From: Candidatus Moraniibacteriota bacterium
Lineage (GTDB): Bacteria > Patescibacteriota > Minisyncoccia > Moranbacterales > UBA1568
Assembly: GCA_043785755.1 (NCBI GenBank)
Contig: JAYVWV010000022.1
Location: forward strand, 1 to 36,788
DNA length: 36,788 nt
Direction of reading: 5' to 3'
Under the pieces are notes generated by a model. It searched no databases and was not told the DNA's origin. It saw nothing but the letters and a program-made list of their open reading frames with translations. Both the position numbers and the translations under genes were made by a program. Below are positions 20,049 to 31,139 of the stretch, piece by piece (position 1 is the stretch's first letter; every line of letters starts with the position of its first letter).

Positions 20049-20390
20049 AGGTAAGCAATCTAGAAGCCTTTGAGGTAACGGGATTGCTTTTGTTTCTATC
20101 TGTTTTTCTTGAACAGGGTGAAATTTCTTTAACAATTGAGAGCCGTCCAGAAATTTTGCGCACGCAAAGTTCTGGATAAAACAATAAACCCTGCCCGCAA
20201 TACTATACGAAGTATTGTAGGCGGGATAATCACAATTTTTTGTGGTTAGTTCTTACGGAGAACTCTATTCTAAGGCAAGCGAAGAAAGCGGAATTTATTC
20301 CAATTTCCAAGCGAACCGAACACGAATCTGAAAATTTCCGCGCGTGAAGTAGAGCGCGGGAGGTCTGAGCAATCAGACGATTCACATACT

Positions 20391-21950
<1,560 letters not shown>

Positions 21951-22220
21951 TAGGGAGTAAGGTGTACGAATTCTGATCTATGATTAGAATCACAACCATA
22001 TGGTCGTTCACTGCACCATTCTCTGCCGACGTTTCGACGAGAGCAGAGCTAGCAGTGAAAACATATATCTTAGAGAACTCTGTACAGAACTAACCACAAA
22101 AGGTTTTGATTATTGTTTTAATACAGCATACTTGATGGAGCGCTCTTCACTGAGCACTTCCCTGCGAAACCTGCCTCACGGTAGGAGGGAATTTCGTCAG
22201 TATTAGTCAGGCTTTGACGC

Positions 22221-22296
22221 ACGCTATCCCAGGATAAAGGAATTTCCTCTGGTAGCCGTGTAAGACACGGAACCCGCTCACAAGGCGGGTTTTTTG
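22221..22296 (+). repeat. Array repeat R1 (includes 16S terminator)
   Basis: ACGCTATCCCAGGATAAAG...ACACGGAACCCGCTCACAAGGCGGGTTTTTT. Confidence 0.85.
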
Positions 22297-22419
22297 TTTT
22301 TCATCATGCACACAGTATGTCACGACCGTTACTGTGTGTGTGCATTTCTTTTTGGCGCAATTGGATATGATGTTGTACACTATATAGTGTATATAGAGGA
22401 AACATTAAAGTAGAGTCAT

Positions 22420-22755
22420 ATGAAACAAGAGATAGATACAACTAAGAGCTTGGCAATTTTCAGGGGCAAAGAAATTCGTAAGACCATCCATGAAAATGAG
22501 TGGTGGTTTTCAGTTATTGATGTTGTAGAAGCGTTAACTGAAAGCGTTAACGCTCGTGATTATTGGTTCAAAATGAAGATTCGTGTCAAAGAAGAAGATG
22601 GGTTTCAACTGTCGACAGATTGTCGACAGTTGAAATTGCTTGCTCCTGATGGAAAAATGAGAGAAACAGACTGTGCAAATACTGAAGGTATATTTCGTAT
22701 TGTTCAGTCCATCCCGTCCCCCAAGGCCGACACCGTTCATTCCGTTCTGAATTAG
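22420..22755 (+). pseudogene. Bro-N domain protein truncated by IS30
   Basis: IRK...EWWFSVIDVVEALT, QLKLLAPDGKMRETD, RIVQSIPSPKA, then stops inside the IS end instead of continuing EPFK.WLA. Confidence 0.8.
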
Positions 22756-23754
22756 GACACTCTGTTGGAGAGTGTCAGTATGAAAAAGAAATCAAAATTG
22801 CAGCGAGTAGAGCGTCTGGAGATAGCTATCCTCCTTGAGAAGGGGTACTCCCTACGAAAGATAGGAAGAGCCCTGGGACGGAGTCCCAATGCCATCTCGT
22901 ATGAAATACGAGAGAACAGTACCAATGGTGTGTATGACCCTCTGAAAGCCGATGCCAAAGCGAGAGTTCGGAAGAGAATGAGCAAGTACCTGAGGCAGAA
23001 GATAGAAGAGAACGATGCCTTACGAGACTTCATCATCGAAAAGCTCACCCTGCACTGGAATCCTGATGAGGTAGCTGGAAGCATGAGACAGAAAAAGACT
23101 CCCTTCTACGCCTCAAAAACAACCATCTATGAATGGCTGTACAGTGGGAGAGGACAGCAGTATTGTCAGTATCTGTACTCTGAGAGATATCGGAAGAAAC
23201 CGAGAAAAGGTAAGAAAACAGAACGAGTGATGATTCCTGATAGAGTAGGCTTAGACAAACGTTTTCTTGGAGCTACTCATCGTACCAGATATGGTCACTT
23301 TGAAGGAGATACCGTAGTCTCACGAAGAGGCGGAAAAGGAGGGCTTTCTGTGCTCTCAGAACGAAAGAGTCGTCTCCTCATGGTGAGAAAGATTCATTCG
23401 ATGTCACCAACGGAAAACATCAGAAAAATACATGGTATGATGAAACTCCTCAATCTGAAAAGTATCACCTTTGACAACGGGATTGAGAACAAAAAGCATG
23501 CCTTTCTTGGTATCCCCACCTTCTTCTGTGATCCCTACTCCTCCTGGCAGAAGGGAGGAGTGGAGAATGGGAACAAGATGCTTCGGAGATACTTTCCCAA
23601 GGGGACTGACTTCAGAGAAGTCAGTCAAAAGGAGATAAACTCTGCTGTGACATTGATCAATGAAAAACCGAGGAAAATCCTCGGGTAATGGTGTATTGTT
23701 AGGAAAAGATAATCTTTGATTTCATCAGGTGTCCTCATTGAGGGGTGAATTAAG
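22735..23754 (+). mobile_element. IS30-family insertion sequence
   Basis: Imperfect 26-bp inverted repeats at 22735-22760 and 23729-23754 (shared AGGACAC) around a DDE transposase; no clear target duplication. Confidence 0.85.
22780..23688 (+). CDS. IS30-family transposase (C-terminus slightly short)
   Basis: HTH SLRKIGRALGRSPNAISYEIREN; GHFEGDTV, SITFDNG, PYSSWQKGGVENGNKMLRRYFPKG; ends KPRKILG*. Confidence 0.92.
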   Translation: MKKKSKLQRVERLEIAILLEKGYSLRKIGRALGRSPNAISYEIRENSTNGVYDPLKADAKARVRKRMSKYLRQKIEENDALRDFIIEKLTLHWNPDEVAGSMRQKKTPFYASKTTIYEWLYSGRGQQYCQYLYSERYRKKPRKGKKTERVMIPDRVGLDKRFLGATHRTRYGHFEGDTVVSRRGGKGGLSVLSERKSRLLMVRKIHSMSPTENIRKIHGMMKLLNLKSITFDNGIENKKHAFLGIPTFFCDPYSSWQKGGVENGNKMLRRYFPKGTDFREVSQKEINSAVTLINEKPRKILG

Positions 23755-23811: not shown

Positions 23812-23886
23812 ACGCTATCCTAGGATAAAGTTATCTGCCTAGGAGGATAGGGAACCCGCTCACAAGGCGGGTTTTTTGTATTTGAC
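23812..23886 (+). repeat. Array repeat R2
   Basis: ACGCTATCCTAGGATAAAGTTATCTGCCTAGGAGG..GGAACCCGCTCACAAGGCGGGTTTTTTGTATTTGAC. Confidence 0.85.
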
Positions 23887-25380: not shown

Positions 25381-25440
25381 GTTTATCTGCTTAGGAGGAC
25401 ACGGAACCCGCTCACAAGGCGGGTTTTTTGTATTTTGACA
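25367..25440 (+). repeat. Array repeat R3
   Basis: ATAAGTTTATCTGCTTAGGAGGACACGGAACCCGCTCACAAGGCGGGTTTTTTGTATTTTGACA; overlaps the stop codon of the upstream gene. Confidence 0.85.
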
Positions 25441-25492: not shown

Positions 25493-26536
25493 ATGCCGAA
25501 TTTTGAAGACCAAACAACGGGTTCACGGAAGGATGATTTTGAGAAGGCAGAAACGAGTCTGGAAGAGATAAAGAAAACTCAAGTGGGTGATTTGTCATTG
25601 GAAGAATTGCAGGCTTTGGTTGCTAAGCGTCAAGAGCTCTCCGGAGAAAAAGAAACGATTGTGGAAGCCGACCATGAAGAAGCACTTGGTATGGAGGAAG
25701 GTCGCAATGCTGCCATAGCAGAAGCAGCTCAAGTCGAACAGGCGAGGCAAGAGGCAGCAAGACATGCCGAAGAGAAAGCTGCTGCCGAGGCTGCTGACGC
25801 TGCTAGGGCAGAAGCTCTTCTTGCCCAGATTAAGAGTGGAGAGGCACCTCAGGCAGAGGCTGTTGAAGGAAGTACTATTTCGAACCAAGAGCCAATCGAG
25901 GAAAGGCTTGAAGCGCCAAGAACTCCGATGTTTGAGAAGTACGGAAACACTATGCGCCAGGCAGCAGGTGAATTAGTGAAAGTAATGAAAGCGATGGACG
26001 AGAATCAGGAGGCAATAAATTCTGCTCAGTACGGGACTCCAGAAGCGAAGCAGTTGTGGGACGAACAGCAAGCATTGAATGATGAAAGAAATCGGCTGCT
26101 GGATAATGTCACAGGAGGGAATAGGGTCATTGAATTTGAAAATAAATCATCCGTTTGGTCTGAACAAAATAAGTACGAAAGCAGCGAAGTAAGAAAATAC
26201 AAAGCTGCTGCCATGAGCGACCCGAAGACAGTGATGCTTTTAGCGGAGGCTGGCCAGCTTGCTTTGGACTACAGAAGCAGGGAGATCGGTGAATCGCTGA
26301 GTAGTAACGCGGAGTTTATGGCAAAACTTCTCAAATCCTTACCTAATAGGAATGCTGCGCAGTATTTTTGGGCGAGCTGTACTGGTGAGGCAAGAAAGAG
26401 TAGGGAGCTCTACATCGCCGCTGTTCAGAAAAATCATCTGAACTATCAGTTTGGGCCTAAAGAATGGACGACTGATTCAAAAATACAAGAGATTGCGATC
26501 GAGAGCGGGCTCAGTCCGATGTACCTTCAGAAATAA
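25493..26536 (+). CDS. Coiled-coil protein with C-terminal DUF4116-like repeat
   Basis: E/A-rich helical N-half; ELYIAAVQKNHLNYQFGPKEWTTDSKIQEIAI resembles DUF4116. Confidence 0.7.
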   Translation: MPNFEDQTTGSRKDDFEKAETSLEEIKKTQVGDLSLEELQALVAKRQELSGEKETIVEADHEEALGMEEGRNAAIAEAAQVEQARQEAARHAEEKAAAEAADAARAEALLAQIKSGEAPQAEAVEGSTISNQEPIEERLEAPRTPMFEKYGNTMRQAAGELVKVMKAMDENQEAINSAQYGTPEAKQLWDEQQALNDERNRLLDNVTGGNRVIEFENKSSVWSEQNKYESSEVRKYKAAAMSDPKTVMLLAEAGQLALDYRSREIGESLSSNAEFMAKLLKSLPNRNAAQYFWASCTGEARKSRELYIAAVQKNHLNYQFGPKEWTTDSKIQEIAIESGLSPMYLQK

Positions 26537-26569
26537 CTTATCGTACAATAAAAATACTGGTTTAACACA

Positions 26570-26661
26570 CACTAGCCCAGAATAAAGTTTACCCGCCTTG
26601 TATGGCAAGCGTTGTGGGCGGGACGCGGAACCTGCTCACAAGGCGGGTTTTTTGTTTGACT
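26570..26661 (+). repeat. Array repeat R4 (with internal palindromic insertion)
   Basis: CTAGCCCAGAATAAAGTTTA...GGACGCGGAACCTGCTCACAAGGCGGGTTTTTTGTTTGAC. Confidence 0.8.
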
Positions 26662-26853
26662 TTTTGTCCAATTTGTGCAATACTGAGAGACAAGAATATA
26701 TTAGTATGAAGTATCAGAGTATGCGAAAGCAATATCGTCATTGGCATGGATTGAGCTCATTTTGAGGGCTGGTTTTTGCTTTTCTTCTTCAAGAAATTAA
26801 TGACGAGCTCTCCACCGGGGGCTCGTTTTTGTTTCTTCATGCAGGAGTATGTG

Positions 26854-27096
26854 ATGCCGAAAGTTAAGGTGCCCAATCGAAGCTGGCCAGTGTCTGAGTC
26901 GAGAGGTTGGCAACAGTCCACAGAGTTCTTTCGTACTTATCCAACGAGACAGGCGCGCCACGATTTCTACCAGAAGCGCGAAGCACTGAACAGGGCAGTA
27001 CGGGAAGGATGGCGAAATCCCGATGGTTCTCCTCGACCCAATCTTTGTCCCGATCCCTATCATGGGCCACGTACCGAGTCAATGGGCGCCTGGTAG
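26854..27096 (+). CDS. Small basic hypothetical protein (80 aa)
   Basis: AGGAG SD at 26843-26847 before ATG 26854; followed by a terminator-like hairpin. Confidence 0.55.
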   Translation: MPKVKVPNRSWPVSESRGWQQSTEFFRTYPTRQARHDFYQKREALNRAVREGWRNPDGSPRPNLCPDPYHGPRTESMGAW

Positions 27097-27154
27097 TTTT
27101 ATAAGCGTCAATGAACGTTTGGTCAGTTTTCTTATGGGAGCTGGCTTTTTTATT

Positions 27155-27183
27155 TTGACAATGATTCTCTCTAGTATTATAGT
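27155..27183 (+). promoter_or_regulatory. Promoter of the PemK-like gene (TTGACA-17-TATAGT)
   Basis: Consensus boxes 30 bp upstream of ATG 27213. Confidence 0.7.
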
Positions 27184-27212
27184 ATATGTAAGTATAGTAA
27201 ACATATAAAGAT

Positions 27213-27611
27213 ATGAAGGAATATAGTAAGGATTTTGATCGGTGGAATGAGAAGAAGAAACAGACCGACGGAAAATCAATAGACCGAGATCTCTTCTTGC
27301 ATGAGCGCGAGGTGTGGTGGTGTGCCATTGGGGTGAATATCGGCGTTGAAATCGATGGAAAACATGATGATTTCAAACGACCAGTGCTCCTAATAATGAA
27401 GTTCAATGGGCTCATGTTCTGGGGAATCCCTCTAACACCCAAAGCAAAAGAAAATCCTTATATTGTAAAAGCCGAACATTCGAAAGGGGTATCGTATGCT
27501 AATTTTTCGCAGTTAAGGCTATGGAGTTCCAAGCGGGTCTTGCGAAAGGTGGGAGTGATTTCGGAGGAGGGCTTTGCCGAAGTGCTCAAGCGCTTGAAAA
27601 ATCTTTTCTAA
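27213..27611 (+). CDS. PemK/MazF-like endoribonuclease toxin (CPR type)
   Basis: KDFDRWNEKKK, EREVWWCAIGVNIGVEIDGK..FKRPVLL, GIPLT, SQLRLWSSKRV. Confidence 0.85.
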   Translation: MKEYSKDFDRWNEKKKQTDGKSIDRDLFLHEREVWWCAIGVNIGVEIDGKHDDFKRPVLLIMKFNGLMFWGIPLTPKAKENPYIVKAEHSKGVSYANFSQLRLWSSKRVLRKVGVISEEGFAEVLKRLKNLF

Positions 27612-27663
27612 AAAAATCGGACCCACCATTGCTGGTGAGTCCTCGGAGGCCGAAGCCACTAAT
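27610..27663 (-). ncRNA. Candidate small RNA convergent on the PemK-like gene
   Basis: Minus-strand TTGACA-16-TACACT promoter (27697-27670), GGC-UUCG-GCC hairpin, 10-bp GCAA-capped hairpin with G-U pair, U7 tract. Confidence 0.55.
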
Positions 27664-27706
27664 AAATATAGTGTACACTATATTCACAGTCTGTCAAGGC
27701 AGTCAG

Positions 27707-27795
27707 GGAATTTCCTTTGGTAGCCGTGTAAGCTTGCCTGCTTGGGGCGGGACACAGAATCCGCTTCGCCAGCTGGCGGACGGGTTTTTTGTATT
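27707..27795 (+). repeat. Array repeat R5 (R1-like, two palindromic insertions)
   Basis: GGAATTTCCTTTGGTAGCCGTGTAAG..ACACAGAATCCGCT..CGGGTTTTTTGTATT. Confidence 0.8.
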
Positions 27796-27934
27796 TCTTT
27801 GCGCACACAGCACCTAACGGTCGCCCGCCTAGACGTCGAGGCTGGTGGTATAGTGTGTGCATAATTTTTTGACGTAATTATGTATTGTGTTGTATAACAA
27901 GTAGTGTATATAGAGTAAACATTAGACCAAAGCT

Positions 27935-28906
27935 ATGCCAAAGAAAACAATACAAAGGGGCGCAGTAATCTATCAGGCCAAGTCCGGGGCGATTGAGCTA
28001 AAGGGTGATTTTAGTAAAGAAACGCTCTGGGCGACCCAGGCGCAGATAAGTAAAATCTTTGGTGTTGAGAGGTCGGTTGTCACAAAGCATATCAATAATA
28101 TCCTCAAGTCGCAGGAAATTGACCAAAAAAGCAATGTGCAAAAAATGCACATTGCAAATTCGGATAAACCAGCCGCTTTTTACTCGCTAGATCTGATTTT
28201 GGCAGTGGGGTACAGAACAAACTCTTCGCGAGCTATTCTTTTCAGAAGGTGGGCTACGGGAATACTGCGTAAGTATCTGGTAGATGGCTATACCATCAAT
28301 CGGTCGCGCATTGGGCAGAATTATGACGTCTTTATGGAGGCCGTAGCCGATGTCCGGGCACTGTTGCCTGCCAGTATGCAGAGTGATACCGGCAGCACCT
28401 TAGAGTTGGTCCGGGTGTTTTCCGATACCTGGATGTCACTCGATGCCTACGACAAAGAGTCTCTCGACCTGAGGAAGCCAACCAAGAAAAAGGTGGCTTT
28501 GACGGGGGCGAAGTTGGCTGAGAGCGTCAGTGTCTTGAAAGGGGAGTTGATACGAAAAGGCGAGGCGACCGATCTCTTTGCTACCGAACGGAATAGAGAA
28601 GCGCTCGAGGGAATTGTAGGGAATGTCATGCAGGCGATGGGCGGACAGGATTTGTATCCGAGTATCGAGGGGAAAGCTGCTCATCTCCTCTACTTTATTG
28701 TGAAAAATCATCCCTTTGTCGATGGCAACAAGCGGACGGGTGCCTATGCGTTTATTTGGTTTTTACATCAGGCCAGAGTATTAGATCGGGAACGACTTTC
28801 GCCGACAGCACTGACCGCTATCACGCTCCTCATCGCCGAGAGTAACCCCAAGGACAAAGACAAAATGGTCAAACTCGTTATGATGCTCATTGGGAAAAAG
28901 AGATGA
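27935..28906 (+). CDS. RhuM/Fic-Doc family fusion protein
   Basis: RhuM-like TLWATQAQIS..YSLDLILAVGYRTNS..FRRWA; Fic motif HPFVDGNKRTG. Confidence 0.9.
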   Translation: MPKKTIQRGAVIYQAKSGAIELKGDFSKETLWATQAQISKIFGVERSVVTKHINNILKSQEIDQKSNVQKMHIANSDKPAAFYSLDLILAVGYRTNSSRAILFRRWATGILRKYLVDGYTINRSRIGQNYDVFMEAVADVRALLPASMQSDTGSTLELVRVFSDTWMSLDAYDKESLDLRKPTKKKVALTGAKLAESVSVLKGELIRKGEATDLFATERNREALEGIVGNVMQAMGGQDLYPSIEGKAAHLLYFIVKNHPFVDGNKRTGAYAFIWFLHQARVLDRERLSPTALTAITLLIAESNPKDKDKMVKLVMMLIGKKR

Positions 28907-29774: not shown

Positions 29775-30632
29775 ATGATATCCGAAAGACATATGCCGGC
29801 GTCACAAGATCCACCCCTACCGGGCTATAAGATGGAAACTATTTCTGGGCCGAATGGGAACGAGGTGGCCTTTTCCCCAGAAAGGGGAGGCATTATCACA
29901 TCGCTGAAGCTACATGGCGTCGAGGCCTTGTATCTGGATACGAAAACGTTTGTTGACCCAAAAGTAAATGTCAGAGGTGGCGTCCCTATTCTTTTTCCCA
30001 ATGCCGGACCGCTTGAGGGCGAGAGGAGTCCCTATCCTGCTTTGAAGCAGCATGGATTCGCCAGAACATCGGCGTGGACAGCTGAACGCGTGGAAGGGGC
30101 GGGGTGGAGCGAACGTTTAGTTTCAGATGACGAAACCAAGCAAGTATTTCCCTATGATTTGGAACTGCGAATGAAGGGTGAATTACGCGATGATGGATCT
30201 GTCGTACTTGTGCAGGAAGTGACAAACCGGGAGACCGATAGAGAAATGCCAGTTGCCATGGGGCTCCACCCATACTTTTGGGTGTCGAATGACAAGAAGA
30301 AGGATATCAAATTTGCTTTTCCGGGCGGAAAGTATATTGAAGACAATGTTGAAAAATGGGCGAATGGGGAAATGGTGAGTACCGAGAATCCGAAGGTCAA
30401 TGATCCAGATGCGGTCCTGAGAATCGAGATACCCGGACTCGGGACGCTTGTCATGGATGTTTCGGCAGAGTATCAGAAAATTTGGGTTTGGTCATTGCCT
30501 GATAAAGATTTCATTTGTATTGAGCCGGTGATGCGCAATATAGGTGGTCTTATCAGTGATCCGGAAATGGTGAAACCGGGTGAAACCTTGTCGGGCCGAG
30601 TTTCTCTACAGCTGGAACAAGAAGTAATCTGA
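29775..30632 (+). CDS. Aldose 1-epimerase family protein
   Basis: RGGVPILFP, HGFAR, GLHPYF, FICIEP. Confidence 0.9.
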   Translation: MISERHMPASQDPPLPGYKMETISGPNGNEVAFSPERGGIITSLKLHGVEALYLDTKTFVDPKVNVRGGVPILFPNAGPLEGERSPYPALKQHGFARTSAWTAERVEGAGWSERLVSDDETKQVFPYDLELRMKGELRDDGSVVLVQEVTNRETDREMPVAMGLHPYFWVSNDKKKDIKFAFPGGKYIEDNVEKWANGEMVSTENPKVNDPDAVLRIEIPGLGTLVMDVSAEYQKIWVWSLPDKDFICIEPVMRNIGGLISDPEMVKPGETLSGRVSLQLEQEVI

Positions 30633-30638
30633 AAATTT

Positions 30639-31139
30639 ATGACCACCCCCGAGAAGCCGAAAACTGTCATCTGTCACGACAAAGATAACAACAAGTTTGA
30701 GGTACCGGTGGACGAGCTTCATATGCGGCCGTCGATTTATGGGGTGATTATTCGGGATGACAAGATTTTGTTGGCGCGCCAGTGGGATGGCTATGACTTT
30801 CCTGGCGGCGGCATCGATCTGGGCGAGGATCTGCGTGATGCCCTGGTACGAGAAGTGCGCGAGGAGACCGGCATGGAGGCCAAGGTAGGAGAGATAGTTT
30901 CCTGTGAAAATTCTTTCTTCAAGACGGAAGAGGGGAAGTGTCTCCACTCTATCCTCCTCTACTTTACCTGTGAAGTCGTCGGGGGCGAGCTTACTATCGA
31001 TGGCATCGATGAAGCGGAAAAAGCCTATGTCCATGAGCTACCGGAATGGGTACCCTTGGCTCATATTGAGAAGATCAAGTTTTATAACTCGGCGGACAGC
31101 CTAAAAATCATCGCGGCGGCGCGGAAAGCCCTTGGGTAA
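30639..31139 (+). CDS. NUDIX hydrolase
   Basis: Nudix box PGGGIDLGEDLRDALVREVREETG. Confidence 0.92.
   Translation: MTTPEKPKTVICHDKDNNKFEVPVDELHMRPSIYGVIIRDDKILLARQWDGYDFPGGGIDLGEDLRDALVREVREETGMEAKVGEIVSCENSFFKTEEGKCLHSILLYFTCEVVGGELTIDGIDEAEKAYVHELPEWVPLAHIEKIKFYNSADSLKIIAAARKALG

Follow-up and report, generated by a model that had tools for sequence, protein, structure and literature searches.

What restrains a MazF/PemK-like toxin whose gene has no antitoxin gene beside it? The question is raised by a 36,788-nucleotide (nt) stretch of DNA from Candidatus Moraniibacteriota bacterium (assembly GCA_043785755.1, contig JAYVWV010000022.1), which we refer to as the window and number along its forward strand. 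The toxin gene, an open reading frame (ORF) for 132 amino acids (aa) with a MazF/PemK fold, lies at 27213-27611 on the plus strand, with its stop codon at 27609-27611. Against its 3' end, on the opposite strand, stands a predicted gene for a small RNA of about 55 nt. A preliminary description of the window had named this RNA as a candidate antitoxin of a kind that differs from those already known. The two genes form a pair that is conserved among distant relatives and, judged from sequence comparisons, the RNA most likely restrains the toxin in place of the usual protein antidote.

The toxin was characterized by profile searches and structural modeling. It matches the Pfam family PemK_toxin (PF02452) with 32.8 bits, against a cut-off of 23.1 (E = 8.8e-8; residues 32-132); scans of the ORF with NCBIfam and PADLOC gave no match. 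A model created with AlphaFold2, using 54 homologues as input, has a mean pLDDT (predicted local distance difference test) score of 83.8. When this model was compared with the PDB using Foldseek, the best match was MazF-mt1 of M. tuberculosis (E = 5.9e-7, template-modeling score 0.61-0.72); all chains among the matches listed are of the MazF/PemK type, and the best of them include the MazF-RNA complexes 5hjz, 4mdx and 5hkc. In sequence, the toxin is distant from the solved MazF proteins (best E = 0.0015). Among 54 toxin sequences, R56 and P57 are invariant and T75 is nearly so; these three residues align with R24, P25 and T47 of S. aureus MazF, of which we take R24 and T47 to be the catalytic arginine and threonine. 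Residues 1-30 (27213-27302) form an N-terminal extension that is specific to the family, with a predicted helix at residues 8-19 and conserved K6, F8, D9, W11, N12, K15 and K16 (KDFDxWNxKKK). This extension is also found in a homologue from the plasmid pVir of C. jejuni, and has no counterpart in canonical MazF. We propose, from the family match and the predicted fold, that the protein is a MazF/PemK-fold endoribonuclease.

Does the window encode any other partner for this protein? A terminator-like hairpin followed by a T-run (27121..27156, plus strand; an 11-pair stem at 27121-27146, then TTTTTATTTT) closes the upstream transcription unit, and the toxin gene is therefore predicted to be monocistronic. 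Its own promoter-like site, TTGACA-17-TATAGT (27155-27183, plus strand; 11 of 12 matches), comes after that hairpin. The only upstream ORF (26854-27096) has no Pfam match, and is separated from the toxin gene because the terminator at 27121-27146 lies between them. Nor is there a conserved neighbor protein within 700 nt of the toxin gene in 88 loci; the 1046 ORFs found there yield a largest similarity cluster of only 4 loci. A search for a tandem-repeat array between 26500 and 28000 returned just two trivial two-copy rows of 9-10 nt. Thus, the adjacent, co-transcribed protein antitoxin of type II systems is absent, in that the toxin gene has a promoter of its own after a terminator and no conserved ORF beside it. 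The upstream, same-strand tandem-repeat RNA of type III systems is absent too, the RNA gene being single, downstream and convergent. What the DNA does contain is the cis-antisense RNA gene of type I systems, i.e., a convergent gene that overlaps the stop codon and 3' end of the toxin gene. The small hydrophobic peptide that is typical of type I, if not universal, is replaced here by a soluble MazF fold of 132 aa.

The small RNA gene is encoded on the minus strand. Its promoter-like site, TTGACA-16-TACACT, is found at 27697-27670 (10 of 12 matches), and the predicted transcript spans 27610..27663, if it starts about 7 nt past the -10 box and ends with the U-run. This predicted RNA consists of a 5' leader, a first hairpin (P1), a UCCGA linker, a terminator hairpin (P2) and the U-run. 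P1, at 27648..27657, has the sequence GGC-UUCG-GCC. The linker, at 27643..27647, is spanned by a CCGAG stretch. P2, at 27619..27642, is a hairpin of 10 base pairs (bp) with a GCAA loop and one U-G pair, and is followed by GATTTTTTTA. The complement of the 3' tail, GAUUUUUUU (27610..27618), provides the final two bases of the stop codon together with the A-run beyond them. The minus-strand fold has an energy of -22.4 kcal/mol (z = -3.46), which none of 200 shuffles equaled, whereas the plus strand folds less stably (-17.0 kcal/mol, z = -2.17), and 5 of 200 shuffles do equally well. The surrounding 1.8-kb region contains 9 promoter-like sites, compared with 2.9 (standard deviation 1.7) in shuffled sequence, and 10 terminator-like sites, compared with 1.7 (standard deviation 1.4). 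Rfam (release 15) gave no match to the window's RNA, either at gathering scores or at E <= 10, and no match at gathering scores in 20 related loci; the 'pemK RNA motif', known to us by family name from one paper, gave no match here either. Up to this point the preliminary description is borne out. It had given the toxin gene its own promoter and no adjacent antitoxin ORF, had placed the TTGACA-16-TACACT promoter on the minus strand, had let the RNA end on the toxin stop codon (the U-run overlaps 27609-27611), and had read the UUCG and GCAA loops and the G-U pair as favoring the fold on that strand.

The pairing of the two genes is more than a chance arrangement, because comparison with homologous loci shows that it is conserved. 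In a first set, made up of the window's own genome and 60 related genomes, the toxin was found in 7 of 61 genomes, at nine places; each of the eight foreign places carries the convergent module, even where the proteins are only 36-44% identical. A species-level scan, with one genome per species, confirmed at least 563 relatives of the toxin among 599 candidate stretches, and the best 80 were extracted as loci. These relatives belong mostly to candidate phyla of ultra-small bacteria; the few outside them are from Methylocystis, Hyphomicrobium, gammaproteobacterial metagenome-assembled genomes and one such genome of the Bdellovibrionales. A convergent promoter and a two-hairpin RNA are found at the 3' end of toxin homologues that are 35-86% identical. 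[quoted passage not shown]

From 60 promoter-anchored flanks we picked by eye 44 RNAs of the window's type, hereafter class 1, and aligned them by sequence alone; the 16 flanks left out comprise 13 class-2 RNAs, the duplicate L068, and L048 and L067, which show no clear module. RNAalifold predicts 12 pairs in this alignment, with compensatory changes in 10 of them, and both helices covary. In P1, exchanges among GC, CG, AU and GU keep the pairs throughout the 44 sequences; in P2, eight of the nine modeled pairs change on both sides. Standard pairs make up 93.1% of the cells, compared with 74.0% after shuffling, and the covariation score is 0.508, compared with 0.181; none of 500 shuffles reached the observed value of either measure. 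Sliding the 3' partners by 1-3 columns gave covariation scores of at most 0.152. The CCGAG stretch and a CG after P2 are invariant in all 44 RNAs. Both the conserved GAGGCCGAAGCC and the covarying hairpins, by which the preliminary description had proposed that the family be recognized in the 3' flanks of homologues, are thus found there. The alignment also identifies the strand: it contains 25 G-U cells, each of which would read as an A-C mismatch on the plus strand, as against 5 A-C cells, so that the functional strand is the minus strand.

A covariance model, R1, was built from the 44 class-1 RNAs and run over the window and the 88 loci. In the window, it matches 27610-27669 with 69.5 bits (E = 1.1e-18). 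By a hand count of the resulting table, R1 has a match at E <= 0.01 on the strand opposite the toxin gene, at its 3' end, in 69 of the 88 loci, or in 68 of 87 if the duplicate pair L007/L068 is taken once. This count excludes the window itself, a match at L077 36-107 (beside a second toxin copy, cut by the contig end), an upstream match in L024, the second copy in L046, a match 290 nt downstream in L025, and a partial plus-strand match in L053. Of 76 loci, 65 have a modeled RNA end that extends to or past the toxin stop codon; in the other 11, this end is 3-28 nt beyond the codon. Taken together, the relatives strongly support, and at the level of DNA confirm, that the convergent pairing of toxin and RNA is real.

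Among the 19 loci missed by R1, inspection by eye revealed 13 variant two-hairpin RNAs and three divergent convergent RNAs; in L075 and L025 the module is present, outside the segments that were examined first. In other loci, P1 is followed by UCG or CGA, P2 is different, and an A-rich tail often has no U-run. On these comparisons the window's motif, class 1, is one subtype within a wider two-hairpin RNA family. An even draw of 150 genomes from the phylum gives a similar picture of the layout. The toxin is present there at 23 places in 14 genomes; R1 detects the class-1 motif at E <= 0.01 in 7 of the 23, and a convergent promoter with two hairpins was recognized by eye at 20 of the 21 assessable places. 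The exceptions are L124, which is unclear, and L129 and L134, which are cut by contig ends. Variation in length and phase bears on what is conserved. The toxin reading frame encloses the RNA in 17 loci and crosses it in different phases, so that the peptide tails differ. Measured from P1 to the end of P2, the 44 RNAs divide into 15, 11 and 18 over the three length classes modulo 3. As all length classes occur and the phases differ, the constraint must be on the RNA rather than on a peptide.

R1 was also used to survey whole genomes. The window's own genome (834 kb) contains a single match. In this genome and the 60 relatives, matches were found at 10 places, of which eight are at a toxin locus, the window's own among them, and two are orphans. 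In the even draw, there are six places, namely five at a toxin locus (in one of which the toxin is frameshifted) and one orphan. Outside the window's genome, this amounts to 15 places, 12 beside toxin homologues and three without. One orphan, in L093 (1460-1610, genome G019), consists of an intact RNA and promoter and has the best score of the model, 70.7 bits; just about 45 nt of the toxin 3' end are left beside it, and Bro-N/RhuM-like and LexA-like genes adjoin. By its sequence, L093 is an antidote-only remnant. In L098 (1440-1560, genome G020), the other orphan among the relatives, two RNA copies of different subtypes stand in tandem, and the second has its terminator directly against the stop codon of a Fic fragment, C-terminal in origin, that resembles the window's Fic gene; a search of genome G020 with the window's toxin as query found no toxin. 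Two tandem class-1 copies, downstream of a single toxin gene, are also present in L046 (2380-2495).

Is such an arrangement known from other bacteria? Searches with tblastn identified toxin homologues on plasmids of Campylobacter, Helicobacter and Nitratiruptor, and in CJIE4 prophages of Campylobacter. The protein encoded at 30630-31034 of pVir from C. jejuni 81-176 aligns with the family profile with an hhalign probability of 99.5% (E = 1e-22), its N-terminal KFDEWN motif included, and this PemK-like homologue is the only toxin-annotated gene on the plasmid. It has no protein partner. It is followed by a convergent TTGATT-17-TATAAT site and a predicted RNA of about 90 nt, with three hairpins and no U-run, that ends at the toxin stop codon. 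The other four Campylobacterota loci have the same layout as pVir; R1, run on the five loci with filters off, gave no match at the toxin 3' ends. The 81-176 plasmid reportedly carries a toxin system, cjrA/cjpT, which Shen et al. are said to have described in 2016 (Mol Microbiol 101:909). From this reported system and the annotation of pVir, we consider it very likely that cjpT is the PemK-like gene. In PMC10470494, PMC7826846 and a bioRxiv preprint, which cite Shen et al. 2016, cjrA is described as an antisense small RNA that serves as the antitoxin in a type I system of pVir in C. jejuni 81-176. The likeness to the window lies in the homologous PemK-like toxin, the convergent layout and the RNA that ends at the stop codon. 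The difference lies in the RNA, which on pVir has another sequence and is longer (about 90 nt), while the window's clade has a conserved RNA motif of its own. By this analogy, the convergent arrangement probably has a precedent in pVir of C. jejuni. The proposal of a candidate RNA antitoxin is thus upheld as regards the conserved convergent RNA, the missing protein partner and the missing upstream repeat array. Its novelty is qualified by the pVir homologue, given which the arrangement is probably not unprecedented.

How, then, might the RNA act? With moderate confidence, we interpret the locus as a two-gene RNA-antitoxin module of a type I-like kind, in which antisense pairing at the 3' end is followed by RNase III decay. 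The toxin would be made from its own promoter, and the RNA of about 55 nt from the strong convergent promoter that lies immediately downstream. The first terminator-like site that follows the toxin gene on the plus strand, and the probable end of its mRNA, is at 27765..27790; on this strand no T-run comes after the hairpin, from 27643 onward. Because no plus-strand terminator precedes 27765-27790, the toxin mRNA should hold the full complement of the RNA; that is, it would run through the RNA gene and its 3' end would be perfectly complementary to the RNA. The RNA, if abundant, would pair with this 3' end, and the single-stranded linker may be where the pairing begins. RNase III, which is encoded in the window's genome, would cut the duplex, and the toxin mRNA, having lost its 3' end, would decay. 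If RNA synthesis were to stop, the toxin would accumulate. We infer the transcription of the module, the toxicity of the protein, the antitoxin activity of the RNA and the mechanism of decay. We favor antisense action because the stop-overlapping position is near-universal, because the layout outlasts changes in sequence, and because the pVir system is labeled type I.

Known type I systems offer partial parallels. The B. subtilis pairs txpA/RatA, bsrG/SR4, bsrE/SR5 and yonT/SR6 are described in PMC6562991 as convergent, pairing at their 3' ends and subject to decay started by RNase III. In these Bacillus pairs the toxin is a small hydrophobic peptide, the two genes overlap by 100-140 bp, and the antitoxin folds into about four stem-loops, whereas the window's module has a 132-aa RNase fold and an RNA of about 55 nt with two hairpins. 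The E. coli pair SymE/SymR is alike in being a type I system with a soluble, nucleic-acid-directed toxin and cis-encoded RNA control; it is unlike in that SymR overlaps the 5' end and ribosome-binding site, and in that the fold of SymE resembles AbrB/MazE rather than MazF.

Several observations weigh against an antisense mechanism. Although a cis-antisense RNA needs no fixed sequence, the 44 RNAs all keep CCGAG and the CG after P2, across toxins that are only 35-86% identical; this points to an additional constraint, possibly binding to the toxin protein. Antisense pairing does not explain the invariant linker and the conserved P1, which could be a nucleation site or a toxin-binding site. The toxin is a soluble RNase fold of 132 aa, and the Bacillus examples, with 100-140 bp, have a longer complementary stretch than the roughly 55 nt found here. 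Pairing would also take place far from the ribosome-binding site, and could therefore act only via mRNA decay. As for the pVir precedent, the equation of cjpT with the PemK-like gene is a probable one, drawn from the reported system and the plasmid's annotation, and the Campylobacterota RNAs escape R1, so that the comparison with the window's RNA is one of layout. Finally, the class-1 motif stands at just 7 of the 23 toxin places of the even draw, the others having been judged by eye.

Because antisense action leaves the invariant linker and P1 unexplained, we retain as a possible, if doubtful, alternative that the RNA acts on the protein, in a type III-like or dual manner, with the linker serving as a pseudo-substrate that blocks the groove of the MazF-like dimer. 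The leader or tail might also lie in the RNA-binding groove, and the antisense position would then reflect compact gene packing. MazF-fold proteins bind single-stranded RNA, as in the structural matches 5hjz, 4mdx and 5hkc, and ToxN of type III systems has a related, Kid/MazF-like fold. The invariance of CCGAG and CG, along with the strong conservation of P1 across toxins of such divergence, would suit a binding site; tandem RNA copies in L046 and L098, intact orphan RNAs that persist without a toxin, and the otherwise unexplained family-specific extension with its conserved K, W and F residues can be read in the same way. Binding does not, however, require the convergent, stop-overlapping position that is found at nearly every locus. 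Moreover, the RNA sequence varies widely across subtypes and Campylobacterota while the layout persists, the fold matches MazF chains rather than ToxN among the matches listed, and the pVir system is cited as type I. The type III systems ToxIN, CptIN and TenpIN share with the window an endoribonuclease toxin, an RNA antitoxin and the lack of a protein antitoxin. Their antitoxins are upstream, same-strand tandem repeats that are processed by the toxin, whereas the window has a single convergent gene downstream, with its own promoter and terminator, and no upstream repeats on the toxin strand (26500-28000); its toxin, too, is a bona fide member of Pfam PemK with a fold that matches MazF chains. 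We therefore regard only tentatively the idea that the two-hairpin RNA is a single-unit convergent inhibitor that binds the MazF-like toxin through CCGAG, alone or in addition to antisense pairing. If true, the repeat-array RNA antitoxins of type III would be joined by a new and separate class, directed against genuine MazF-family nucleases and widespread among ultra-small bacteria.

It is less probable again, and in our view unlikely, that the RNA is tied to the toxin gene without being an antitoxin, i.e., that it is a 3'-end or stability element of the mRNA, an insulator against convergent transcription, or a molecule that the nuclease uses as cofactor or substrate. On this view the protein could be an enzyme of RNA processing with no toxicity, as the N-terminal extension that sets the family apart from canonical MazF would allow, and plus-strand hairpins right after the stop codon could shield a processed mRNA 3' end. 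Against this, a near-consensus promoter is conserved on the opposite strand and the G-U pairs favor the minus strand. The contexts are of a mobile or defense type (plasmids, a prophage, and an island beside Fic/RhuM and Bro-N genes). In addition, RNA-only remnants exist, whereas just 1 of the 21 assessable toxin places of the even draw has no recognizable partner RNA; this asymmetry is that expected of a toxin and its antidote. That the element is not a gene at all is highly improbable: AUGG does precede P1 in many copies and a 46-aa ORF does begin at GUG in the window, as a small minus-strand ORF start (GUG/AUG-GCU-UCG-GCC...) would require, but the lengths fall in all classes modulo 3, and the toxin ORF, where it reads through, uses different frames, which rules out such an ORF; a dispersed GC-rich hairpin repeat is ruled out by the single copy in the 834-kb genome and by matches elsewhere almost only beside toxin homologues; and the strong covariation of the helices speaks against the reading as a whole, a chance promoter and terminator included.

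The annotation of the family in public databases deserves comment. RefSeq labels the relatives as 'type II toxin-antitoxin system PemK/MazF family toxin', a label whose 'type II' misleads, because the genes have no protein antitoxin. With the type II systems MazEF, PemIK and Kis-Kid, the window's toxin shares its fold and the aligned positions of the catalytic Arg and Thr. It differs from them in having no MazE/PemI-like gene and no conserved neighbor, in its extra N-terminal helix, and in its weak similarity to solved MazF proteins (E about 1e-3). In full-text literature searches, no account was found of a convergent small RNA beside a MazF/PemK-family toxin gene of ultra-small bacteria. Three aspects appear to be new, namely how broad the family is, its conserved RNA motif and the mismatch with the public 'type II' label. 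Should the RNA prove to be the antitoxin, small-RNA control would apply to a bona fide MazF-family nuclease whose relatives number at least 563 in the species genomes that were scanned. The family extends over many candidate phyla of ultra-small bacteria, some Proteobacteria, and plasmids and prophages of Campylobacterota, which would be an unusually broad spread for an antisense-regulated toxin system. The module would also add a compact, well-covarying RNA family that is absent from Rfam, and its two-part construction suits a clean choice between antisense action and protein binding.

The toxin gene and its RNA have as their neighbor a gene with RhuM and Fic/Doc domains (27935-28906, plus strand), which matches the candidate defense family PDC-S23 (E = 4.6e-102). 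A convergent small RNA like that of the toxin was not found after this gene. The spacer between the small RNA promoter and the RhuM-Fic gene copies sequence found after the 16S rRNA gene, as two repeats, namely 22239-22264/27707-27732 (96% identical) and 22336-22428/27853-27945 (72-78% identical); the repeated sequence holds a promoter-like stretch and a shared 5' leader before Bro-N/RhuM-type genes. A 36-nt terminator unit, consisting of a hairpin and a T-run, recurs with 92-100% identity at 22264-22299, 23846-23881, 25398-25433 and 26622-26657, where it terminates four consecutive genes in the island that lies downstream of the 16S gene. With this repeated terminator, the island looks like a cassette-like construction. 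A 111-aa Bro-N ORF is directly followed by an ORF with an HTH_38 domain of IS30 type (22420-23688), and an insertion may have cut the Bro-N gene short. The 16S rRNA gene is itself flanked by a 28-nt inverted repeat (20226-20253 and 22086-22113, 89% complementary), which is probably the processing stem of the precursor.

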